From positions 1 to 32,000 of the forward strand of contig NZ_OMOH01000010.1 of NCBI RefSeq assembly GCF_900289195.1: 32,000 nucleotides of DNA, read 5' to 3'. The DNA comes from Propionibacterium ruminifibrarum (lineage in GTDB: Bacteria > Actinomycetota > Actinomycetes > Propionibacteriales > Propionibacteriaceae). Below, in pieces: positions 5,116-16,672 of this stretch. Both the position numbers and the translations under genes were made by a program. The notes under the pieces were generated by a model, which saw nothing but the letters and a program-made list of their open reading frames with translations, was not told where the DNA came from and did no database searches. Positions within the stretch are counted from its first letter, which is position 1. Each line of letters starts with the position of its first letter.

Positions 5116-6017
5116 AGTTCGTCCTCCTCGGCCCGGACCAGTGTGCCGAAGCCCTCGTTCGTGAAGATCTCAAGCAGCAGCGAGTGCTCGACCCGGCCGT
5201 CGATGACGGTGGCGCGGCTCACCCCGCCCTGCACGGCCCGCAGGCAGGCCTCCATCTTGGGTCGCATGCCCGAGACCAGCCCGGGCAGCATGTCCTGCAG
5301 CTCGCGCGCGCTGATCTGGGTGATGACGTCCTCGCTGTTGGGCCAGTCCGAGTACAGGCCGGCCACGTCGGTCAGCATGACGAGACGTTCGGCGCCCAGC
5401 GCGACGGCCAGCGCCGCGGCCGCGGTGTCCGCGTTGACGTTGAAGACCTCCTCGTGCTCGCCGGGGGCGACCGTGGCGACGACGGGGATGCGGCCGGCGT
5501 CCATGAGGTCCTGGACGGCCTGGGGCTGCACGGCGGTGACCTCGCCGACCTGGCCGAGCTCCATCGGGGTGCCGTCGACCATGACCTTCTTCGGCACGGC
5601 GGTGAACAGCCGGGCGTCCTCGCCCGACAGGCCCACCGCGTAGGGGCCGTGGTCGTTGATCATGTTGACGAGTTCACGCCCGACCTTGCCGACCAGCACC
5701 ATGCGGACGACGTCCATGGCCTCGGGCGTGGTGACGCGCAGTCCCCCGCGGAACTCGCTGTGGATGTCGAGGCGTTTGAGCATGCGACTGATCTGGGGGC
5801 CGCCACCGTGGACGACCACGGGCTTGATCCCGCAGCGGCGCATGAAGACGATGTCCTGGGCGAAGGCGCGTTTGAGGTCGTCGTCGATCATGGCGTTGCC
5901 GCCGTACTTGATGACGACGATCCTGCCCGCGTACTGCTCGAGCCAGGGCAGGGCCTCGATGAGGGTACTGGCCTTGCTGATGGCCGCATCACGGTCGAGA
6001 CTGCGCACCCGGCTCAT
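5112..6017 (-). CDS. argB: Acetylglutamate kinase
   Basis: I trimmed the ORF to the ATG at 6017 ([16 protein letters not shown]...). The amino-acid-kinase motifs VIKYGGNAM and [10 protein letters not shown] are present. The start forms an ATGA overlap with the argJ stop. Confidence 0.92.
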
Positions 6018-7165
6018 GAGGAGTACTCCGCGTTCTCCTTGACGTAGTCGTACGTCAGGTCGTTGGTCCAGATCGTGGCCTGCTCGCCCCCGGCGTGCAG
6101 ATCGACGACGACGCTCACCTCGCGCGGGTGCAGGTCGACCAGGGAACGATCCTCGCCGATCGCCCCGCCCCGGCACACCATGACGCCGTTGAACGAGACG
6201 TCGAGCTCGTCGGGGTCGAAGACGGCACTCGTCGTACCGACCGTGGACAGCACGCGCCCCCAGTTGGGGTCGTTGCCGAAGATGGCGCACTTGAACAGGT
6301 TCGAGCGGGCGATCGCGCGTCCCACCTCGAGGGCGTCGGCCTCGCTGGCGGCTCCCCTGACGAGGATCGCTATGTCGTGGGAACTGCCCTCGGCGTCGCC
6401 GAGCAGCTGGGAGCCGAGGTCGAGGCAGACGGTGGTGAGTGCCGCCGCGAACGTCCTGGTGTCGAGCTCGACCCCGGAGGCCCCCGAGCTCAGCAGCAGG
6501 ACGGTGTCGTTCGTCGACTGGCAGCCGTCGGAGTCGAGCCGGTTGAGGGAGACCTCGGTGGCCGCACGCAGCGCGGTGTCCGCCTGCTCGGGCGTGATGA
6601 CGGCGTCCGTCGTGACGACGACGAGCATCGTTGCCAGGGCCGGGGCCAGCATGCCGGCGCCCTTGGCCATGGCGCCGATCGACCAGCCCCCGCCGTTGAA
6701 GACGGCGGTCTTGGGACGCGTGTCGGTGGTCATGATGGCGCGCGCGGCGTCGGCGTCGCCGTGAGCGGACAGGCCTGCGACGGCGCTGTCGACGCCGGCG
6801 AGGAGCGGCTCCATGGGCAGGCGCTCACCGATCAGGCCGGTGGAGCAGACGGCGACGTCGTGGCAGGCGACGCCGAGCAGATCGGCCAGCCTGTCGGCCG
6901 TGGTGGCCGTGTCGGCCATCCCCTCCTCACCAGTGCAGGCATTGGCGCCTCCCGAGTTGAGGACGACGGCTCTCAGCGCGCCGTCGGCCACGGCCTCACG
7001 AGACCAGATGACAGGTGCCGCGCAGACCCGGTTCGAGGTGAAGACGCCGGCGGCGACATCGGCCGGGCCATCGTTGACGACGACCGCCAGGTCGAGACTG
7101 CCGCCGTCCTTGATGCCGGCGGCGACCCCGGCGGCGCGGAAGCCCTTGGGTGCGGTGACGCTCAC
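6014..7165 (-). CDS. argJ: Bifunctional ornithine acetyltransferase / N-acetylglutamate synthase
   Basis: I trimmed the 581-aa track ORF to the GTG at 7165 ([19 protein letters not shown]...), which forms a GTGA overlap with the argC stop. The autoprocessing site context [14 protein letters not shown] is present. Confidence 0.88.
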
Positions 7166-8193
7166 GGTGCGACTCCAATCGTGGACAGGCCGATCGTCTC
7201 GTCCAGGCCCAGCGCGAGATTCATGGACTGCACGGCGCTGCCGGCAGTGCCCTTGGTGAGGTTGTCGAGGACGGCCACGGCGACGAGCCGCCCGGCCGCC
7301 CGGTCGACGGTCGCGTTGACGACGACCGCGTTCGAGCCGAGCACCGACTGGCTGGCCGGCCACACGCCCTCGGGAAGCACGTGGACGAAGGGTTCGTCCG
7401 CATAGGCCGCCAGGTAGGCCTGCCGCACTCGTTCCGGCGGGATCGCCGGGTCGATCGGAGCGGTGATGACGGCCAGGATGCCGCGCTGCATCGGGGCGAG
7501 CAGCGGGGTGAAACTGATCGACGGGGACTCGGCGCCCAGTGCCTCGAGGTTCTGCAGGATCTCGGGGACGTGCCGGTGCGTGCCGCCCACCCCGTAGGCG
7601 CTGACCGAGCCGGCCGTCTCGGAGCCGAGCAGGTTCGGTTTGGGGCTGCGCCCGCCACCACTGGTGCCGGAGGCCGCGGTGATGGTGATGTCGTGACCAT
7701 CGATGAGCCCGCCGGTGATCGCCGGCAGCAGGCCGAGTGTGCTGGTGGCGACGTAGCACCCGCAGACGGCGACGCGTTTCGTGCTGCGCAACCGTTCACG
7801 CTGCCCCGGCATCTCGGGCAGCCCGTAGGGCCAGGACCCGGCATAGGGGGTTCCGTAGAAGGCGTCCCACCGTTCGGCGCTCGTGAGGCGGTGGTCGGCG
7901 CCGCAGTCGATGACGAGGGTGTCGGGGGGCAGCTGGGCGGCGATGGCCGTCGAGGCGCCGTGCGGCAGGGCCAGGAAGACGACGTCATGGCCCGCCAGGT
8001 TCTCCGCGGTGGTCTCGACCACTCGCCGGTCGTACAGGCTGATCAGGTTGGGGTGGTGCTCGCCCAGGACGGTTCCCGCACTGGAACCGGCGGTGAGCGC
8101 GCCGATCTCGATCCGCGGGTGCCCGGCCAGGAGCCGAAGGATCTCGCCTCCTGCGTAACCGGTGCACCCGGCGACTGCTGCTGTGTACGACAT
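7162..8193 (-). CDS. argC: N-acetyl-gamma-glutamyl-phosphate reductase
   Basis: The N-terminus [22 protein letters not shown] carries the NAD-binding fold, and the catalytic Cys context is [11 protein letters not shown] prefer the ATG at 8193. An in-frame ATG at 8199 is the alternative start. Confidence 0.9.
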
Positions 8194-8230: not shown

Positions 8231-8294
8231 TTGCTCGCATTCGAGCGGGCTAGTGTTGTGCACGATGCGTGATGACTATTCGAGAGGTGCTCCG

Positions 8295-9509
8295 ATGACA
8301 AGCTACACACAGTCCTCCAGGCTGCGGGGCGTGCGTTACGACGTGCGAGGCAAGAACATGGTCGAGGCCCAGCGCATGGAGGCGGCGGGGCAGCGCATCC
8401 TCAAGCTCAACATCGGCAACCTCGCCCCGTTCGGTTTCGAGACACCGGACTCGGTGGTCCGCTCCATGGTCGCCCACCTCCCCGAGTCCGAGGGCTACTC
8501 CGACGCCCACGGCGTCTACTCGGCGCGGACCGCCGTGGCGAACTACTACCAGTCCAAGGGCCTGGACGTCGACGTCGACCAGGTGATGCTCGGCAACGGC
8601 GTCAGCGAGTTGATCTCGATCGTCCTGCAATCCCTGCTGAACGCCGACGACGAGGTGCTCATCCCCAGCCCCGACTACCCGCTGTGGACTGCCCAGACGA
8701 CCCTGTGCGGCGGCCGCGCCGTGCACTATCTCGCCGACGAGAGCAACGGCTGGAACCCGGACCTGGAGGACATCGCCTCGCGGATCACGCCCAGGACCAA
8801 GGCGATCGTCATCATCAACCCGAACAACCCGACCGGCGCCGTGTACAGCGCCGAGATCATTCGCGGCATCATCGACCTGGCCCGCGAGCACGGGCTCATC
8901 GTCCTGGCGGACGAGATCTACGAGAAGATCATCTACTCAGGCAACCACGTCTACGCGGCGAACCTGGCCGGCGATGACGTGCTGTGCCTCACCTTCTCCG
9001 GCCTGTCGAAGGCCTACCGGGCCTGCGGGTTCCGGGCCGGCTGGCTGGTCATCACCGGCCCGCTGGCAGCTGCCGAGGACCTGCGTGAGGGACTCGATCT
9101 GCTCGCCAACATGCGCATGTGCGCGAACGTGCCGGGCCAGCACGCCATCCAGACCTGCCTCGGCGGTCACCAGTCGATCGACGAGCTGGTGACCCCCGGG
9201 GGCCGGTTCCACGACCAGATCATGTTGTCGTCCCGGCTGCTCAACGAGATCGAGGGAGTCAGCTGCGTGCCGGCGAGCGGCGCGCTGTACCTGTTCCCGC
9301 GCCTCGACCCGGAGCGCTTCCCCATCGAGGACGACGAGGAGTGGGCGCTCGGCCTGCTGCGGCACAAGAAGATCCTGGTCAGCCACGGGCGCGGCTTCAA
9401 CTGGCCGAACCCCGACCACTTCCGCCTTGTCGCCCTGCCCGAGGAGAAGGTGCTGCGCGAGGCCCTCGCCCGCCTGGCCGAGTACTGCGAGGAGACGCGC
9501 CGGGACTGA
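8295..9509 (+). CDS. Class-I PLP-dependent aminotransferase (AlaA/AspC-like)
   Basis: The ATG at 8295 is preceded by GAGAGG. The N-terminus MTSYTQSSRLRGVRYDVRG...ILKLNIGNLAPFGF aligns with AlaA-type enzymes. The PLP-lysine motif is SGLSKAYRACGFRAGW. Confidence 0.9.
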   Translation: MTSYTQSSRLRGVRYDVRGKNMVEAQRMEAAGQRILKLNIGNLAPFGFETPDSVVRSMVAHLPESEGYSDAHGVYSARTAVANYYQSKGLDVDVDQVMLGNGVSELISIVLQSLLNADDEVLIPSPDYPLWTAQTTLCGGRAVHYLADESNGWNPDLEDIASRITPRTKAIVIINPNNPTGAVYSAEIIRGIIDLAREHGLIVLADEIYEKIIYSGNHVYAANLAGDDVLCLTFSGLSKAYRACGFRAGWLVITGPLAAAEDLREGLDLLANMRMCANVPGQHAIQTCLGGHQSIDELVTPGGRFHDQIMLSSRLLNEIEGVSCVPASGALYLFPRLDPERFPIEDDEEWALGLLRHKKILVSHGRGFNWPNPDHFRLVALPEEKVLREALARLAEYCEETRRD

Positions 9510-9521
9510 CCGCCCTCGATC

Positions 9522-10904
9522 TCAGTCCCGCGGCTCGCCCCACAGCACGGCCCTGCGGATCAGCAGATAGGCGAGCAGCAGCGCATTGGTCACCACCCAC
9601 GACAGGGGGTACAGCATCGCCACGCGGGTGACGGCCCCGAAGACCTGCGGCAGCGCCGCAAGGAGTACCACGCGCAGGCCGCACAGGGCGCTGACGATGA
9701 TGATCATCGGGGGCAGGGCGTGGCCCGCACCGCGGATCGAGGACGAGAGGACCTCCATCAGGGCGAAGAGCAGGTAGCAGGGACCGATGATGCGCGCGAT
9801 GCTCGTGGTCAGCGCGATGACCTGTGGGTCGGCGGTGAACATGCCGAGGATCGGGCCCGAGGCCACGAGCAGGGCGACGGCCAGGACCGACGTGACGGCC
9901 ACGCCGATGAGGCAGCAGACGCGGACGGCTCGGCGGGTTCGCGCCCGGTCCTCGGCGCCGAGGTTCTGGGCCACACTGGTCGAGGCGGCCTGGCCGAGGG
10001 CCATGACCGGCATGTACAGGAAGTTCTCGACCCGGAACCACACGGTGAAGGCCGCGATGTCGGGGATACCCAGCCCGTTGATGCGGTACTGGACCGCCAC
10101 ATTGCTCAGCGTGATGACGAGGGCCTGGACGCCGGCCGGCAGGCCGATGGCGAGGATCTCGCGGAGGGTGACCCGGTGCAGGTGGAAGCGCGTCAGACGC
10201 AGCCGGTAGCGCTCGTCGAGGCGGCGCAGGGCGAGCAGCACCAGCACCGCGCAGAGCGTCTGCGAGGTGAGGGTCGCCGCCGCCGCGCCGACGATCCCCC
10301 ACCGGAAGACGACGATGAACAGCGCGTCGACCAGGACGTTCACCACCCCGCCCAGCAGCTGGCAGAGCATCGGCGTGAGCGAGTCGCCCACCGCGCGCAG
10401 GACCCCGGCCCCCATGTTGAACAGGACGACGCTCACCAGCCCGAGCAGGTAGATGCGCACGTAGACGACGGCCATGGCCAGGATCTCGTCCGGGGTGTTG
10501 AGCCAGGCGAGCAGGGTGGGGGCGATGAGGATCATCGCGGGGATGAGCAGCGTTCCACCGGCCAGTCCGAAGGCGAGGGCGGTGTGCATGACCCGATCGA
10601 CCTGACTGTGCCGCCCGGCCCCGAAATGTCGGGCGACGAGCACGCCGGTGCCGGTACCGAGCCCGGTGAACATGCCGATGAGGCAGGTGACGATGAGTCC
10701 GCTGGCACCGACCGCGGCGGCCGCCTCGGTGCCCAGGGCGTGGCCGACGAACATGAGGTCGACCGTGCTGTAGAGCAGCTGGACGAGGGCGGCCCCGAGC
10801 AGCGGCAGGGCGAAGACGATGATCCCGCGGCCCAGGGGGCCGGTGGTCAGGTCGGTGGTACGGCTGCGTCCGCGGCGTGCGGCGGTGCCCGGGGCGGCTG
10901 TCAT
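9522..10904 (-). CDS. MATE family efflux transporter
   Basis: 460 aa and highly hydrophobic, with about 12 predicted helices. The N-terminus ...GPLGRGIIVFALPLLGAALVQLLYSTVDLMFVGH is typical of MATE (NorM/DinF). The ATG at 10904 shares its A with the upstream ATPase stop, giving TGATG on the minus strand. Confidence 0.85.
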   Translation of the reverse strand: MTAAPGTAARRGRSRTTDLTTGPLGRGIIVFALPLLGAALVQLLYSTVDLMFVGHALGTEAAAAVGASGLIVTCLIGMFTGLGTGTGVLVARHFGAGRHSQVDRVMHTALAFGLAGGTLLIPAMILIAPTLLAWLNTPDEILAMAVVYVRIYLLGLVSVVLFNMGAGVLRAVGDSLTPMLCQLLGGVVNVLVDALFIVVFRWGIVGAAAATLTSQTLCAVLVLLALRRLDERYRLRLTRFHLHRVTLREILAIGLPAGVQALVITLSNVAVQYRINGLGIPDIAAFTVWFRVENFLYMPVMALGQAASTSVAQNLGAEDRARTRRAVRVCCLIGVAVTSVLAVALLVASGPILGMFTADPQVIALTTSIARIIGPCYLLFALMEVLSSSIRGAGHALPPMIIIVSALCGLRVVLLAALPQVFGAVTRVAMLYPLSWVVTNALLLAYLLIRRAVLWGEPRD

Positions 10905-11833
10905 CAGCTCACCTTGGCGCCCTGTTCCACACCGGCCCGGGCCACGAGATGTCCCGGGGAGAGTTCGACGAGCGGGGCCGTCTCGTCCTCACCGGCCCAG
11001 CCGCCGTCCTGGAGACCGGCGGCCCCGGCAGGAGCCGGCCGGTCGAGCCTGCCGTCCCGGTTGCGGGGGTCGAGTACGGAGTCCAGCAGCATCCGGGTGT
11101 AGGGGTGCCGGGCCTGCGCGACGAGTTCGTCGGCGGGCAGCTGCTCGACGACCCGCCCGTGGTACATGACGACGATCGTCTGCGCGAAGTGCGTGACCAG
11201 CGCCAGGTCGTGGCAGACGAATCCGATGGTGATGCCGCGTTCGGCCTGCAGGCGGGCGAGCAGGGCGATGATCTCGGCCTGGGCGCTGACGTCCAGGGCG
11301 CTGGTTGCCTCGTCGCACAGGAGCACCTGCGGGTCGAGGGTGAGTGCCCGGGCGATGGCGCAGCGCTGGAGCTGGCCGCCGGACAGCTGGTGGGGGTAGC
11401 GCACCACGAAGTGACCGGGCAGTCCGACCATGCGGAGCATCTCGCGGGCCCGGGGGATCACCTCGTCGCGTCCGATGAGCCCGTAGCCGATGAGCGGCGC
11501 GCAGATCGCCTCGGCCATGCGCATGCGTGGGGCGAAGGAGCCCAGCGGGTCCTGGAAGACCATCTGCACCTGACGCCGTACCTCGCGCAGGCGCGCGCCC
11601 CTGAGCCCCTGGATCGGCCGGTCGCCGAGGAGCACCCGCCCGCTGGTCGGCTCCTCGAGGCCGATGAGCATGCGCAGCAGGGTGCTCTTGCCCGAACCGG
11701 ACTCGCCGACGACGGCGACCGTCTGTCCCCTGGGCAGGGTGACGGTGACGTTGCTGCACGCCGTCAATCGACTGCCGTCGGGCAGCCGGAAGATCTTGGT
11801 GAGCCCCTCGGCCCTCATCACCGGTTCGGTCAT
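10904..11833 (-). CDS. ABC transporter ATP-binding protein (OppF/DppF/NikE type)
   Basis: I trimmed the ORF to the ATG at 11833, preceded by GAGGAG. Walker A is GESGSGKST, the signature is LSGGQLQRCAIARAL, and Walker B is LLCDEATSALD. Confidence 0.9.
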   Translation of the reverse strand: MTEPVMRAEGLTKIFRLPDGSRLTACSNVTVTLPRGQTVAVVGESGSGKSTLLRMLIGLEEPTSGRVLLGDRPIQGLRGARLREVRRQVQMVFQDPLGSFAPRMRMAEAICAPLIGYGLIGRDEVIPRAREMLRMVGLPGHFVVRYPHQLSGGQLQRCAIARALTLDPQVLLCDEATSALDVSAQAEIIALLARLQAERGITIGFVCHDLALVTHFAQTIVVMYHGRVVEQLPADELVAQARHPYTRMLLDSVLDPRNRDGRLDRPAPAGAAGLQDGGWAGEDETAPLVELSPGHLVARAGVEQGAKVS

Positions 11834-11843
11834 GTTCGGCTCC

Positions 11844-12674
11844 TCACAGCGAAGGCATGCTGGCCAGCAGCGATGCCGTGTACTCGTGGGTCGGGTGGTC
11901 GATGATCTGGTCGGTGGGGCCGAGTTCGAGGACGTGTCCTGCGCGCATGACCATGATCGTGTCGGCCATGTGGGCCGCCACACCGAGGTTGTGGGTGACG
12001 ATCATGATCGCCGTGCCCTCCTGGCGGCGCAGCGCGAGCATCTGGCGAACGATCTGGGCCTGCATGGTCACGTCCAGGGCGCTGGTCGGCTCATCGGCGA
12101 GCAGCAGGGCCGGTTGGAAGGTCATCGCCATGGCGATGCCGACTCTCTGACGCATGCCGCCCGACAGTTCGAAGGCGTAGGAGTCCATGACGCGGCGCGG
12201 ATCCGGCAGCGCCATGCGTTCGAGCATGGCCTCGGCTCGTTCGCGGGCCTGTGCCCTGGTGACGTCCGGTTCGGCGGTGCGGATGTATTCGACGAACTGG
12301 GCGCCGATGCGCCGCACGGGGTTGAGCATGGCGCCGGTGTCCTGGAAGACCATCGACATGCGGTGGCGGCGCAGGTCGAGCCATTGCGCCTGGTCCAGGT
12401 CGAGCAGCGAACGCCCCTCGTAGCGGATGTCGCCGCTGCTGACCTGCCCGCTCGACGGCAGCAGACCGAGGACGGCGCGGATCACCGTGGTCTTACCCGA
12501 ACCGGACTCCCCCACGATCGCCACGATCTCGCCCGGGGTCACGTCCAGGCTGACGTCGCTGACGGCGGGGGTGCCGTCGTAGCTGACGGTCATCCGCTGG
12601 ACGCTGAGCAGGGGCGTGCCGTCCACCTGGTTCTTCTCAGGGGGGTCCTCCCGCCCCGGTCTGCTGCCCGTCAT
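11844..12674 (-). CDS. ABC transporter ATP-binding protein (OppD/DppD/NikD type)
   Basis: I trimmed the ORF to the ATG at 12674, preceded by GAGGACGAGG. Walker A is GESGSGKTT, the signature is LSGGMRQRVGIAMA, and Walker B is LLLADEPTSALD. Confidence 0.9.
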   Translation of the reverse strand: MTGSRPGREDPPEKNQVDGTPLLSVQRMTVSYDGTPAVSDVSLDVTPGEIVAIVGESGSGKTTVIRAVLGLLPSSGQVSSGDIRYEGRSLLDLDQAQWLDLRRHRMSMVFQDTGAMLNPVRRIGAQFVEYIRTAEPDVTRAQARERAEAMLERMALPDPRRVMDSYAFELSGGMRQRVGIAMAMTFQPALLLADEPTSALDVTMQAQIVRQMLALRRQEGTAIMIVTHNLGVAAHMADTIMVMRAGHVLELGPTDQIIDHPTHEYTASLLASMPSL

Positions 12675-12687
12675 CCTCGTCCTCAGT

Positions 12688-14292
12688 TCACTGCACCGGC
12701 TTGAAGGCGTTCGTGATCCAGTAGTAGTCCGCGGTGGCAACGGTTGCGCCGCTCACGGTCTTCGCATTGGAGCACATGTTGCTGTTGTAGTAACCATGGA
12801 CGAGGACCGCCGCGTCGTCGATGAGGATCTGCTGCAGGCGGACGAAGATCTTCTTGCGCTCCTCGGTGTCCAGTTCCGTCTCCAACTGCTCGTAGAGGGA
12901 GTCGTACTCGTCATTCCTGTAACCGCAGTAGTTGGCGTCGCTCTTGGAGTACCAGTTGGCGAGGTAGCTGTAGGGGTCGCCCTCCTGGGCGGTCATCCAG
13001 TTGCTGGAGTTCATGTCGTACTCGCCGGCCACGAGCCGGTCCCACTCGGTGTCGGCGTCGAGCTTGGTGACCGTCGCCTGGATGCCGATCTCGGCGAGCT
13101 GGGTGGACACGGCCTCGGCCATGACCGACAGGTTCCGCGAGTCGTAGGTGACGTAGTCCAGGTCGATCTTCGTGCCGTCCAGCTCACGGAAGCCGTCGCC
13201 GTCGGAATCGACGATGCCGGCGTCGTCGAGGATCTTCTTGGCCCTCTCCACGTCGTGGGGGGTGGCGTCGGTCAGCTGGTCGTAGCCGAAGTCGAGCGAG
13301 GAGGGCACGACCGAGCAGCCCTCGCTGTAGAGGCCGCCGGTCGTGGTCCCGGTGATCGTGGCGTCGTCGACCGCCATGCAGATGGCGGTGCGCAGGTCCT
13401 TGTTCGCCAGCGGGCGGCCCTCGGCGGCATTGAGGTAGGAGAAGCCCGTGCGCATGCTGATGGTCTGCGAGACCGAGTAGTCCGGATCGTCCTTGAGCTT
13501 CTCGAGGTCGGACATGGCCGTGATGTTCTCGGTGACGTCGACGTCGCCGGACTGCAGGGCCATGGACTTGGTCAGGCTCGAGGCGTCGTCGATGAAGATG
13601 ACGTCCACACTCTCGTAGGGCACCTCGCCGTTCCAGTAGTGCTCGTTGCGGGTGAGTTTGACGTCCTGGCCGCTGTTGAACTCGCTCACCGCGTAGGGGC
13701 CGGTGCCGATCGGCTTCTCGGCGAGGTTCTCGCTGCCGGCGATGTCGAGGATCTCGAACAGCGGGTTGGCCAGGACGGCCGGCAGGTCGGCGTAAGGGGT
13801 CTGGGTCACGATCGTGACGGTGCGGGCCTCATCGTCGGGCGTGATCGAGGCCGGTTTCATGAAGTTCGACGGTGAGGACGACCCCTCGACGCCCTCCTTG
13901 TCGTACATGTGCTGGAGGGACTCGGCGACCTTGGTGGCGGTGACCTCGGTGCCGGTGGAGAACATCAGGCCCTCCCTGATGTGGAACTGCCAGTTCGTGT
14001 GCTCGTCGTCGACCGTGTAGGTGTCGGACAGTTGGGGCTGAGCGACCATGTGTTCGTCGAACTTGAACAACGACTCGCCCACCCCGTAACGCATGCAGGC
14101 CCAGGCCGCGTTCGGCTGGTTCGACGGGTCGAGGGACTCCTTGGAGAAGTTCGTGCAACCGAACTTCAGCTCCGTGCTGGAACCGCCCGAGCCCGAGCCC
14201 GAGGAACAGCCGGCCAGGCCGAGGCCGGCGACAGCGGCACCGGCGGCGGAGGCGGTCAGCAGACCGCGGCGGGTGACGATGATTCCCTGCAT
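12688..14292 (-). CDS. ABC substrate-binding lipoprotein, family 5 (peptide/nickel type), Tat-exported
   Basis: 534 aa. The N-terminus MQGIIVTRRGLLTASAAGAAVAGLGLAGCSSGSG combines a twin-arginine motif with an LAGC lipobox. The overall composition fits an Opp/Dpp/Nik-type binding protein. Confidence 0.88.
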   Translation of the reverse strand: MQGIIVTRRGLLTASAAGAAVAGLGLAGCSSGSGSGGSSTELKFGCTNFSKESLDPSNQPNAAWACMRYGVGESLFKFDEHMVAQPQLSDTYTVDDEHTNWQFHIREGLMFSTGTEVTATKVAESLQHMYDKEGVEGSSSPSNFMKPASITPDDEARTVTIVTQTPYADLPAVLANPLFEILDIAGSENLAEKPIGTGPYAVSEFNSGQDVKLTRNEHYWNGEVPYESVDVIFIDDASSLTKSMALQSGDVDVTENITAMSDLEKLKDDPDYSVSQTISMRTGFSYLNAAEGRPLANKDLRTAICMAVDDATITGTTTGGLYSEGCSVVPSSLDFGYDQLTDATPHDVERAKKILDDAGIVDSDGDGFRELDGTKIDLDYVTYDSRNLSVMAEAVSTQLAEIGIQATVTKLDADTEWDRLVAGEYDMNSSNWMTAQEGDPYSYLANWYSKSDANYCGYRNDEYDSLYEQLETELDTEERKKIFVRLQQILIDDAAVLVHGYYNSNMCSNAKTVSGATVATADYYWITNAFKPVQ

Positions 14293-14341: not shown

Positions 14342-15235
14342 TCAGGACAGCGGGGCCGGGACGAGCTCGACGACGTCCTCGTCCTGGCCGGCGTGGCGGG
14401 GGTCGAGGATGTCGCGCAGGGCGTCGCCCAGCAGATTGAAGACGATGACGGTGACGCTGATCGCCGCGCCGGGGAAGATCATGAGCCACGGCGAGTCGAG
14501 CAGGTAGGCGCGGCCCTCGTTGAGCATGAGGCCCCACTCGGCCTGCGGCGGCTGGGCGCCGAAGCCGAGGAAGGACAGGCCGGCAAGTTCGAGCATCATC
14601 GTGCCGATGTCGGTGGCTGCCGTGATGACCAGTGTCGGAAGGGCGCTCGGCAGCAGGTAGCGGCGCATGAGACGGCCGGGCCGGGTGCCGCTGAGTTCGG
14701 CGGCCGTCACGAAGTCCGAGTGCCGGATCTTGAGCACCAGGCTGCGCGCCAGGCGGGCGTACTTCGTCCAGCTGACGACGGCCAGGGCGATGATCGCGTT
14801 GCGAATGCTCGCCCCGAGCAGACCGGCCACGGCGATGGCCAGGACGATGCCGGGAAAGGAGATCATCATGTCACTGATGCGCATGATGACCGCGTCGACG
14901 AGCCCGCCGAAGTGTCCGGCGATGACACCCAGGAACGAGCCGACGACGGAGATCGTGAGGACGAGGATGATCGCCGAGGTGAGCGAGATGCGGGTGCCGT
15001 AGACGATCCGCGAGGCGATGTCGCGGCCGAGCTTGTCGGTACCGAACCAGTGCTCGGCGCTCGGCGGCTGGAAGGCGTCCGAAAGGTTCGCCGCATAGGG
15101 GTCCATCGGCGCGATCTGCTTGGCGAAGACCGCGACGAGGATGATCACGACGACCAGCGCCACGTAGACGCCGAAGATCCTGCGCCCGCCGATGGCGCGG
15201 CGGGTGTTCCTCCAGATGCTGCGCAGTGCGCTCAT
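14342..15235 (-). CDS. ABC transporter permease (DppC/OppC/NikC type)
   Basis: I trimmed the 675-aa track ORF to the ATG at 15235 (MSALRSIWRNTRR...), which forms an ATGA overlap with the upstream permease stop. It contains FGTDKLGRDIASR and the permease loop region AAELSGTRPGRLMRRYLLPSALP. Confidence 0.9.
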   Translation of the reverse strand: MSALRSIWRNTRRAIGGRRIFGVYVALVVVIILVAVFAKQIAPMDPYAANLSDAFQPPSAEHWFGTDKLGRDIASRIVYGTRISLTSAIILVLTISVVGSFLGVIAGHFGGLVDAVIMRISDMMISFPGIVLAIAVAGLLGASIRNAIIALAVVSWTKYARLARSLVLKIRHSDFVTAAELSGTRPGRLMRRYLLPSALPTLVITAATDIGTMMLELAGLSFLGFGAQPPQAEWGLMLNEGRAYLLDSPWLMIFPGAAISVTVIVFNLLGDALRDILDPRHAGQDEDVVELVPAPLS

Positions 15236-16200
15236 GAGCGGGCTCCTCGTCGTACGCGCGGGTCGAGCCGGGCGTAGGAGATGTCGACCAGCAGGTTGAT
15301 GACCATGTAGATGAGTGCGATCCACAGCACGTAGGTCTGCACCAGCGGGTAGTCGTACGAGGTGACCGCCGAGACAGCCATGTTGCCCAGACCCGGGTAG
15401 GAGAAGACGACCTCGACGACGGCCGTGCCGCCCAGCAGCGAGCCGAGGGACAGGCCGAGCAGGGTGAGCAGGGGGAGCTGCGCGTTCGGCAGGACGTGCC
15501 GCCACAAGATGGTGCGCTCCGACATGCCGCGGGCCCGGGCACCGATGACGTAGTCCTGGTTGAGTTCCTCGAGGACGGCGGTGCGGACCTGGCGGGTGTA
15601 CCTGCCGATCATGGCGAAGGCCAGCGTGACGGCCGGCATGATGAGCTGGTCGAGGCCCTTCCCCGTCGAGACCACCGGCAGCAGCCCGAGCTTGAGGGCG
15701 ACGGCCCAGATGAGCAGCAGACCGAACCAGAAGTTCGGCATTGAGACGCCGAGGAAGCTGAAGCCGCGTGCGAGGTGGTCGATGACGCTGCCCTGGCGCA
15801 CCGCGGCCGCCATGCCCAGGGGGACGGCGACGAGGAGCATGAGGACCAGGGACGCCAGCGCGAGCTTGATGGTCGGCCACAGGCGGGCCAGCATCAGGTC
15901 TGTGACGGGCTTGTTCAGGGAATAGGACGTGCCGAAGTTCCCGTGCAGGCAGTTGCCGAGCCAGGTGACGTACTGGGTGAGGAAGGGCTTGTCGAGGCCG
16001 AGCCGGGCGCGCATCTCCTCGACCATCTCGGGTGTCGGCGTGATGCCCTGGCTGGTGTACATGGCCTGCGCCGGGTCGCCCGGGGCGAGCCAGACGAGCA
16101 CGAAGGTGATGAAGCTGATGCCCACCAGCACGACAAGAATCTGACCCAGCCTCCGGGCCAGCCATCGAGCGTCCACGAGCCGCAACCACCTCACGATCAT
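15232..16200 (-). CDS. ABC transporter permease (DppB/OppB/NikB type)
   Basis: 322 aa. The N-terminus ...LARRLGQILVVLVGISFITFVLVWLAPGDP and the loop ARARGMSERTILWRHVLPNA are typical of this type. The start is uncertain: ATG at 16200, or an in-frame GTG at 16176 preceded by GAGGTGG. Confidence 0.88.
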   Translation of the reverse strand: MIVRWLRLVDARWLARRLGQILVVLVGISFITFVLVWLAPGDPAQAMYTSQGITPTPEMVEEMRARLGLDKPFLTQYVTWLGNCLHGNFGTSYSLNKPVTDLMLARLWPTIKLALASLVLMLLVAVPLGMAAAVRQGSVIDHLARGFSFLGVSMPNFWFGLLLIWAVALKLGLLPVVSTGKGLDQLIMPAVTLAFAMIGRYTRQVRTAVLEELNQDYVIGARARGMSERTILWRHVLPNAQLPLLTLLGLSLGSLLGGTAVVEVVFSYPGLGNMAVSAVTSYDYPLVQTYVLWIALIYMVINLLVDISYARLDPRVRRGARS

Positions 16201-16279
16201 GACGGATGTCGTTCGTCACAACCGGATTCTTGCGACTCTCCGCTCGGGCCCCGTGATCACCAAGTACCGCAGTGACGAG

Positions 16280-16455
16280 GAGGTTCCCAGGCAGGTCTTC
16301 TGACTCGCGTCCCGGGGCGGTTGCCCCGACGGACCCTCTGCCTTCCCGGTTGCCCAGTGGCCGGCTCACGCCGATGAGGGTCCGGGACGCTCACAGCGGC
16401 GGTCCCGTCCGCGATTCGCACGCGGTTCCCTGTTGCTCCGACCAGCCCGACGGGG
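16280..16455 (-). promoter_or_regulatory. Cobalamin (AdoCbl/B12) riboswitch
   Basis: The minus strand contains, in the canonical order, AACAGGGAACCGCGTGCGAATCGCGGACGGGACCGCCGCTGTGAGC, then GAGCCGGCCACTGGGCAACCGGGAAGGC, then the B12 box AGTCAGAAGACCTGCC (16305..16290). It ends about 90 nt upstream of the first permease gene. Confidence 0.85.
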
Positions 16456-16672
16456 TTGATCGGACACCTGGGGATGCTGCGCGCTCAGCACGCGCAGCGC
16501 CCTTGCTTCGCTGGGAGCATAGCAGTACCTAACTGATGCGACGCAATCTCATCTGGCAACTTACGCAGCAAAGGCTCGCCTTCTTGCGTTTCCGTCGGCC
16601 GGTGGGCCGGCACGGCAGCGCCGCGGCCCCGAGAGACCGCGGCGCAGACCGGTCGCGTCGGATGCTGGTTGT

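Follow-up and report, generated by a model that had tools for sequence, protein, structure and literature searches.

What is taken up by an ATP-binding cassette (ABC) importer of the peptide/nickel family when its genes stand behind a cobalamin (B12) riboswitch? The question is raised by a 32,000-nucleotide (nt) stretch of Propionibacterium ruminifibrarum DNA (NZ_OMOH01000010.1, positions 1 to 32,000; hereafter the window), in which such a riboswitch occupies the 5' leader of nikB, the first gene of a nik-type operon on the same, minus strand. Comparisons of sequence and predicted structure point to a B12-related role, most simply cobalt supply, as the best-supported function, because the riboswitch accompanies every orthologous operon that could be scanned, the linked binding proteins form one clade, nearly all carriers have a marker of corrin synthesis and the host has a CbiX pathway. 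B12-repressed uptake of cobalt, or of a cobalt chelate, is thus the best reading of the operon and a probable one. The kind of system is already known: NikABCDE homologues preceded by riboswitches were predicted to be cobalt importers in 2006 and 2009, and the window is largely an ordinary example. A modest interest of its own lies in a defined cross-phylum transfer, an exchanged expression platform and an unexplained but faithful MATE partner.

The element is a genuine riboswitch of the class-I cobalamin type. In a window-wide cmscan search against Rfam, the only riboswitch match was RF00174 (16487..16273, minus strand; E = 2.5e-16), with 72.8 bits against a gathering score of 31.5 and coverage of model positions 1-189 of 189. 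This covariance search bears out the original prediction, which had recognized the element by its hallmark blocks on the minus strand; the three blocks are found at 16434..16389, at 16367..16340 and, in the case of the B12 box (AGTCAGAAGACCTGCC), which is read directly from the sequence, at 16305..16290. The aptamer core is essentially invariant in the orthologous leaders of four Propionibacterium loci, i.e., the window, L017, L018 and L019. The B12-box segment AGAAGACCTGCC does not vary, and a single one of the first four bases of the box does (U to C in L019); the GCCACTG core lies inside 16367..16340, and the single changes in the leader core are one in GCCACUG in L018 and the one in the B12 box of L019. 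The 341-nt leader folds much better than shuffled sequences (z = -3.6).

Six cistrons, nikB, nikC, nikA, nikD, nikE and matE, follow on the riboswitch strand, their starts refined by comparison with orthologues and by placement of Shine-Dalgarno (SD) sequences. The nikB-like permease gene (15232..16176) starts at GTG 16176, 96 nt from the aptamer end; this start was fixed by comparison, and the corresponding codon in L019 is ATG. A non-conserved ATG at 16200, 72 nt from the aptamer end, was rejected as the nikB start: its frame stops after four codons in L017, and indels shift the frame in L017 and L018. The nikC-like permease gene (14342..15235) overlaps the nikB stop codon with its ATG (ATGA), the gene of the nikA-like family-5 substrate-binding lipoprotein (12688..14292) follows after a 49-nt gap, and the genes of the nikD-like (11844..12674) and nikE-like (10904..11833) ABC ATPases after gaps of 13 and 10 nt, respectively, with GAGGACGAGG preceding the nikD ATG (12674) and GAGGAG preceding the nikE ATG (11833). 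matE (9522..10904), for a MATE-family transporter (Pfam MatE, E = 2.5e-51; TIGR00797 above cut-off), overlaps nikE (TGATG). As the cistrons overlap or are 10-49 nt apart, each with a GAGG-type SD, they constitute a single operon and transcript. Pfam matches on the first five genes (BPD_transp_1 in both permeases, SBP_bac_5 with E = 1e-69 in the binding protein, ABC_tran and oligo_HPY in both ATPases) complete a five-component importer. The two permeases, Tat-type family-5 binding lipoprotein and two ATPases that had been recognized downstream of the riboswitch are therefore present; the riboswitch does head an ABC operon, and the operon has six genes instead of the five first counted, the MATE gene being added.

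The family names carried by these proteins in Pfam (BPD_transp_1, OppC_N, SBP_bac_5, ABC_tran, oligo_HPY) are generic. At that level the original prediction, according to which homology alone would label the system an oligopeptide or dipeptide transporter, is correct, but NCBIfam equivalogs identify the permeases as nickel permeases: the nikB product scores 380.7 bits with Opp2B (cut-off 350) and the nikC product 328.5 bits with Opp2C (cut-off 300). The E. coli-type nikB and nikC models stay below their cut-offs. The best NCBIfam match of the nikD product is nickel_nikD, under the cut-off, and NikE, DppF and OppF models score about equally with the nikE product. DppA, OppA and peptide-permease models are far below the nickel models.

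For the binding protein, too, the peptide label does not reach beyond Pfam, the best matches in both sequence and fold being of the NikA type. Its N-terminus has a twin-arginine motif (TRRGLL) and a lipobox (LAGC). The best sequence matches in solved structures are family-5 proteins of B. anthracis and B. halodurans ('nickel ABC transporter'), AapF and S. aureus NikA. An AlphaFold (AF2) model built from 23 orthologues (pLDDT 88.3, pTM 0.86) has as its top Foldseek match S. aureus NikA with a Ni-(L-His) ligand, and the top group comprises S. aureus NikA, AapF, E. coli NikA and the B. halodurans Ni-binding protein (E about 1e-40 to 1e-38). Brucella NikA is a further match; DppA, OppA and MppA rank lower (1e-35 to 1e-33), CntA with Ni- or Co-staphylopine is found lower down, the heme-binding HbpA and the glutathione-binding GbpA are also among the matches, and the scores form a continuum. 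Taken together, the two permease equivalogs and the nearest binding-protein structures place the system in the nickel/cobalt family.

Evidence for a B12-related role comes from the orthologous loci. A search using one genome per species yielded relatives of the binding protein at 26 loci: three in Propionibacterium (84-90% identity), two distant ones (29-34%) and the others in Clostridia (44-57%). Upstream of the operon, a same-strand RF00174 match was present in all the 23 loci long enough to scan (3 Propionibacterium, 20 Clostridia). No RF00174 match was found at the two distant homologues, L041 and L042, in the case of L041 even at E <=0.1. In a maximum-likelihood (ML) tree, the riboswitch-linked binding proteins form one clade (support 100/99), which excludes the distant homologues, the family paralogues, the second family-5 protein of the host and E. 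coli NikA, and which conserves two cysteines (C46, and C456 in an NYC motif) and two histidines (H104 and H499). CbiD, which marks the de novo synthesis of the corrin ring, is encoded in 22 of the 23 carrier genomes, the exception being a metagenome-assembled genome. The order riboswitch-B-C-A-D-E is found in Propionibacterium, Peptostreptococcaceae, Clostridium and some Oscillospiraceae, and riboswitch-A-B-C-D-E in one Lachnospiraceae clade. Every Propionibacterium locus and roughly half of those in Clostridia thus have the binding-protein gene in the middle, an order that is normal in this clade and not atypical as had been thought. A MATE gene 39-50% identical to that of the window stands directly after nikE at six Clostridia loci and nearby at four more. 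Some Clostridia have a LysR regulator and/or an AstE/AspA-family (PF24827) deacylase gene between riboswitch and nikB (L020:2295-4174, L022:3188-4168, L024:740-1657), placed under riboswitch control; both are absent from the window.

The host genome (2.78 Mb, 68.9% G+C; closest named relatives Propionibacterium australiense and P. acidifaciens) agrees with this role. It has eight RF00174 matches, and the other assigned riboswitches precede mutA-mutB-meaB, genes for two BtuF-like proteins and a FecCD permease, cbiB-cobQ-cbiA, and a locus running from cbiL through cbiG to CbiX. From these riboswitch-linked loci, with CbiX, CbiG, CbiL, CbiB and CobQ, the host is a B12 producer using the early-cobalt-insertion route, and the BtuF-like/FecCD locus is a separate riboswitch-controlled candidate for corrinoid uptake. 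NiCoT, urease, NiFe-hydrogenase and NikR were not found in the host genome, and the lack of the last three speaks for a limited use of nickel. The supply role that the original prediction had proposed for the importer, with cobalt as the most likely item supplied, thus stands on the riboswitch link in all the 23 loci, the CbiX of the host and CbiD in all carriers except one.

How the riboswitch would control the operon is suggested by the region between aptamer and start codon. No terminator-like site was found between aptamer and start codon; the sole nearby minus-strand match of this kind (16161..16141) is inside the nikB coding sequence. In contrast, the Clostridial leaders L022, L023 and L036 have a hairpin and a T-run about 35-55 nt past the aptamer. 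The SD of nikB (GAGGTG, 16187..16192, minus strand), 10 nt before the start codon, is invariant in the four Propionibacterium leaders together with the block AGAATCCGGTTGTGACGA, and lies within a long conserved hairpin (16185..16236, minus strand; RNAalifold consensus of the four orthologues), a P13-like candidate sequestor that contains the invariant block AGAAUCCGGUUGUGACGA. The pairing partners in this hairpin are GUC[G/A]C and GGUG[G/A], whose one-sided changes leave the pairs intact. Constrained folding gives a cost of 3.3-6.6 kcal/mol for forcing the SD free in each of the four orthologues, and the pairing probability of the GGUG core exceeds 0.85 in three of them, the window sequence having the core in an internal loop between two helices. 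From the lack of a terminator between aptamer and start codon and the invariant SD within a conserved hairpin, we infer that the platform in the window is translational repression by SD burial, which would replace the intrinsic terminator of the Clostridial leaders. Translational repression is usual for high-GC bacteria.

Two more elements of the leader have a bearing on its fold. Between the aptamer and the regulatory hairpin, a further hairpin (16256..16276, minus strand; RNAalifold, columns 39-59 of A2) has two pairs changed on both sides yet kept in the four orthologues. Also, L5 of the aptamer (GACCG) and an invariant CGGUU of the leader might form a kissing contact; both are invariant in the four leaders, and the other riboswitches of the host are too divergent for a covariation comparison.

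Three other pairings were considered and rejected. The original prediction took a CCTCCTC run just after the B12 box as a possible anti-SD. The run is present at 16283..16277, about 4 nt from the place first given, and in the window it can pair with the SD region with one U-U mismatch. It is absent from L017, L018 and L019 and is outside the RNAalifold consensus fold, forming no part of the SD-burying hairpin, and the anti-SD role is thus not sustained. An anti-sequestor pairing of the aptamer CAACCGG (about 16352-16346) with the leader CCGGUUG relies on a 7-nt complementarity that is lost in L018. For a hairpin CGUGAG/CUCGUG over SD and start codon, two changes in L019 give a C-A mismatch and thus no support.

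A mechanism can be proposed from these features. When B12 is plentiful, the bound aptamer would favour the conserved hairpin and bury the nikB SD; translation of the operon would fall, and message stability or Rho-dependent read-through would probably fall as well. When B12 is scarce, the six-gene operon would be expressed, and the Nik-type ABC importer would bring in cobalt for the CbiX-dependent B12 pathway, alongside CbiMNQO. The cobalt would probably be imported as a small chelate, e.g., a Co-histidine-type complex. The whole module, including the MATE gene, passed horizontally from a Bacillota-like donor into one Propionibacterium subclade, and it would work with a translational platform in the new host. 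The analysis shows the riboswitch, the build of the operon, its family, the conserved link with the riboswitch, the insertion with its phylogeny and the lack of a terminator; we infer the response to the ligand and its direction, the coupling of aptamer and hairpin, and the substrate.

Several observations weigh against B12-repressed cobalt uptake. Regarding the switch, the platform analysis used four close leaders and its covariation support is thin; the SD hairpin is predicted by folding whether or not the aptamer forms, and constrained folding did not find a conserved anti-sequestor or SD-free alternative involving the aptamer, so that the switching step is unexplained. Regarding the binding protein, its best NCBIfam model, Opp5A_nikA, gives 242.2 bits against a cut-off of 600, TIGR02294 gives 147.7 against 393, and no NikA equivalog cut-off is reached. 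In E. coli NikA, the nickel chelate is reported to be held by Arg97, Arg137, Tyr402 and His416 (PMC2667541). The corresponding residues of the window protein are V, L, E and D and vary across the clade, the positions being approximate at 22% identity. From the missed cut-offs and these unconserved residues, the protein is NikA-like in fold and family and is not an equivalog of any characterized NikA. Regarding the need for the system, the host also has cbiM-cbiN-cbiQ-cbiO, so that a plain Co(II) importer would seem superfluous. Of the 23 carriers, 19 have a strong CbiM match, one has a weak one and three, Romboutsia timonensis among them, have none; in most cases the Nik-type system is therefore an additional route beside CbiMNQO and not a replacement of it. 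The host has one LarA-family (Lar_N) gene (G000:C19:163990-164496), the only candidate nickel-dependent enzyme found in its genome, which hints at some nickel use, and selectivity for cobalt or nickel is not readable from sequence. Finally, a literature search found no transport, binding or expression study of any such riboswitch-linked Nik-family system.

The redundancy with CbiMNQO, which co-occurs in most carriers, would be relieved if the importer took up a corrinoid or B12 building block (cobinamide, cobyric acid or a lower-ligand precursor) and not a metal, the riboswitch shutting off salvage when B12 is sufficient. B12 riboswitches commonly control corrinoid uptake, and family-5 proteins can hold large ligands, as is seen from HbpA and GbpA among the matches. 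BtuM is known to use a cysteine as axial ligand of cobalamin, and two cysteines, C46 and C456, are conserved in the riboswitch-linked clade; the AstE/AspA-type deacylase of some Clostridia operons suggests an organic substrate that is processed after import. However, a BtuF-like/FecCD system is already behind another riboswitch of the host, both permeases exceed nickel-permease equivalog cut-offs, the nearest structures are metal-chelate binders, and since 22 of the 23 carriers make the corrin ring de novo, salvage is not required. We regard corrinoid uptake as unlikely.

The MATE partner and the deacylase can be joined in a further tentative scheme, a B12-controlled pair in which MATE exports a small chelator (a 'cobaltophore', possibly a common or histidine-like metabolite) at low B12 and the Nik-type importer recaptures the cobalt complex. 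The AstE/AspA-type deacylase of some Clostridia would then release the metal inside the cell. We give this pair about the same small weight as corrinoid uptake. If true, it would mean a dedicated chelator-based acquisition of cobalt, distinct from CbiMNQO and gated by the end product B12.

Slightly less probable again is a nickel or mixed Ni/Co importer like S. aureus NikBCDE/NikA, with a riboswitch that reflects shared traffic of the two metals. Such an importer would fit the equivalog-level permease matches, the Ni-(L-His) ligand of the top fold match, the LarA-family (Ni-pincer cofactor) candidate, and related systems such as CntA that carry both metals. But nickel systems are typically under NikR or beside nickel enzymes (PMC2667541), and NikR, urease and NiFe-hydrogenase were not found in the host; a B12 sensor conserved in all the 23 orthologous loci fits cobalt and does not fit nickel. 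A common transporter of di- or oligopeptides, with a riboswitch left over or acting on something else, is highly improbable: the Pfam-level names OppC_N, oligo_HPY and SBP_bac_5 and the lower-ranking peptide binders among the fold matches speak for it, but the position and strand of the riboswitch are conserved across two phyla, the leader is conserved up to the SD, and the peptide-transporter models score far below the nickel ones.

Several known systems resemble the window operon. Zhang et al. (2009, PMC2667541, citing Rodionov 2006) describe NikABCDE-family members of Clostridium tetani and Desulfitobacterium hafniense that are preceded by B12 riboswitches, and regard them as exceptions, specific for cobalt, within a family whose other members serve nickel; for the 40 Actinobacteria in their Table 2, no such case is given. 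As compared by published description, those operons share with the window operon a cobalamin riboswitch directly upstream of a five-component Nik-family importer in a B12 producer; the nearest relatives of the window operon are in Clostridia, and cobalt uptake is inferred for both. The window differs in that the host is an actinobacterium which obtained the module by horizontal gene transfer (HGT) at a defined site, in the translational platform proposed for it, and in MATE as a fixed sixth cistron.

The S. aureus NikBCDE (Opp2) and NikA (Opp5A) proteins resemble the window importer in that the window permeases pass Opp2B and Opp2C and the binding protein has Opp5A_nikA as its best model and S. 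aureus NikA as its best fold match. The window binding protein, however, scores 242 bits against the cut-off of 600, is about 20% identical, and its operon has a B12 riboswitch. S. aureus nikA is unlinked from nikBCDE, whereas in the window nikA is in the middle of the operon.

Of the systems that are analogous in function and control, only CbtJKL of Sinorhizobium meliloti has been tested by experiment; it is a canonical cobalt ABC importer under an adenosylcobalamin riboswitch with a BtuF-like CbtJ (PMC7689651). It is not homologous: the window operon has SBP_bac_5 and BPD_transp_1 (DppBC-type) proteins and no BtuF-like (Peripla_BP_2) or FecCD-type ones. In the same bacterial family, CbiMNQO of P. 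freudenreichii, with its cbiM cobalamin riboswitch, performs B12-repressed cobalt uptake (PMC11494915) and is reported to be controlled at transcription. The host also has cbiMNQO, which differs from the window operon in being of the energy-coupling factor (ECF) type, without a binding protein. Directly upstream of the host cbiM, a weak match to the AdoCbl-variant RF01482 is present (30 bits, cut-off 50; L016:1363-1448, G000:C31, about 159.9 kb), which agrees with the known P. freudenreichii cbiM riboswitch (PMC11494915); the long open reading frame L016:1240-2220 probably over-extends cbiM across this match.

The staphylopine system Cnt (CntABCDF and CntE) likewise pairs a family-5 Ni/Co importer with an exporter gene in one cluster, and CntA with Co-staphylopine is among the fold matches. 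In contrast to Cnt, the six-gene operon has no opine-synthesis (cntKLM-like) gene, and the NCBIfam models CntA, CntC, CntD and CntF are far below cut-off. CntE is an MFS exporter, whereas the exporter of the window is of the MATE family.

Where the operon came from can be read from its distribution. Among 151 Propionibacteriaceae genomes of 40 genera, orthologues of the binding protein (at least 84% identity) occur only in three other Propionibacterium, so that, with the host included, 4 of the 8 Propionibacterium genomes sampled have one; the next match within the family reaches 31%, versus 45-57% to Clostridia. The only MATE orthologue (88%) among 61 family genomes is in a nik-bearing congener, all others being at or below 35%. 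In the ML tree the four Propionibacterium binding proteins group together (100/100) within sequences of Bacillota (92/96). The module, 7.1 kb from riboswitch to matE, has exactly pheT and a convergent aminotransferase gene as its neighbours, and the congener G072 shows the empty site, with the aminotransferase gene, likewise convergent, immediately after pheT and argC after that. On this comparative evidence, the module with its MATE gene was acquired by HGT from a Clostridia-like or Bacillota-like donor. As module and host have equal codon GC3 (0.87-0.94 in the module), the transfer is old or passed through an unsampled high-GC intermediate. Species that carry the module have more similar pheT (81-89% versus about 70%), which fits one acquisition in a Propionibacterium subclade. 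In the congener G017, which lacks the nik module, the pheT-aminotransferase-argC interval holds other, unrelated genes (L050:600-4300, 5900-8100); the pheT-aminotransferase interval may be an insertion hotspot.

At the right-hand end of the inserted module, an 8-bp inverted repeat (GGGACTGA ... TCAGTCCC; 9502..9529) spans both convergent stop codons, of matE and the aminotransferase gene, and may be a bidirectional terminator. The gene beyond it is the plus-strand 418-aa aminotransferase at 8253-9509, which is next to argC in all congeners examined. 'orf213' (8250-8891, minus strand), with a GC3 of 0.61, is a shadow frame of this gene and was rejected.

Cobalt supply limits B12 production in propionibacteria, which include industrial and food B12 producers as well as oral and skin flora. 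If the cobalt reading is true, a second B12-gated cobalt route beside CbiMNQO would be a practical target in strain engineering. Annotation would benefit also, since the label regularly given to such operons is that of a 'peptide' or 'nickel' transporter. The locus is a natural example of a riboswitch module crossing from low-GC Firmicutes to a high-GC actinobacterium, in which the sensor was kept and the read-out would have changed from a transcription terminator to SD sequestration. Current models of cobalt uptake leave one element unexplained, the MATE partner, which is fixed across phyla.

Other genera of Propionibacteriaceae have a second nikBCADE-like lineage (B-C-A-D-E), whose binding protein shares about 30% identity with that of the window. 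Upstream of its nikB, in equivalent position and orientation, weak RF00174 matches occur (L044:8746-8877, minus strand, 33.3 bits; L045:3978-4175, 26.3 bits; L043:4074-4129, 24.3 bits), which are probably divergent B12 riboswitches. Because of these matches, the riboswitch link in Actinobacteria is probably not unique to the transferred module.

Directly 5' of aptamer P1 in the window leader, the minimum free energy and centroid folds give a GC-rich hairpin (16476..16498, minus strand), whose stem is retained despite base changes in L018 and L019, the changes being compensating (alignment A1), and which probably sits at the 5' end of the leader. The hairpin overlaps outer P1 pairs that cmscan gives with two mismatches; these pairs are probably mis-assigned by cmscan.

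Two other riboswitches of the host have features of their own. One (87.4 bits; G000:C21:304114-304324, i.e., L009) precedes mutA-mutB-meaB (genes L009:473-5845), for the B12-dependent methylmalonyl-CoA mutase. It is counter-intuitive that an enzyme in need of B12 should be under an OFF switch, and PMC11494915 does not list methylmalonyl-CoA mutase genes as riboswitch targets in P. freudenreichii. The other is a strong cobalamin riboswitch (86.8 bits; G000:C29:92301-92511, minus strand, i.e., L010:7802-8012), which is followed only by an apparent C-terminal remnant of an ABC ATPase (...VITHSPPLAKRL..., about L010:7665-7800), the rpoB upstream region and rpoB, and which looks like an orphan left after a deletion.

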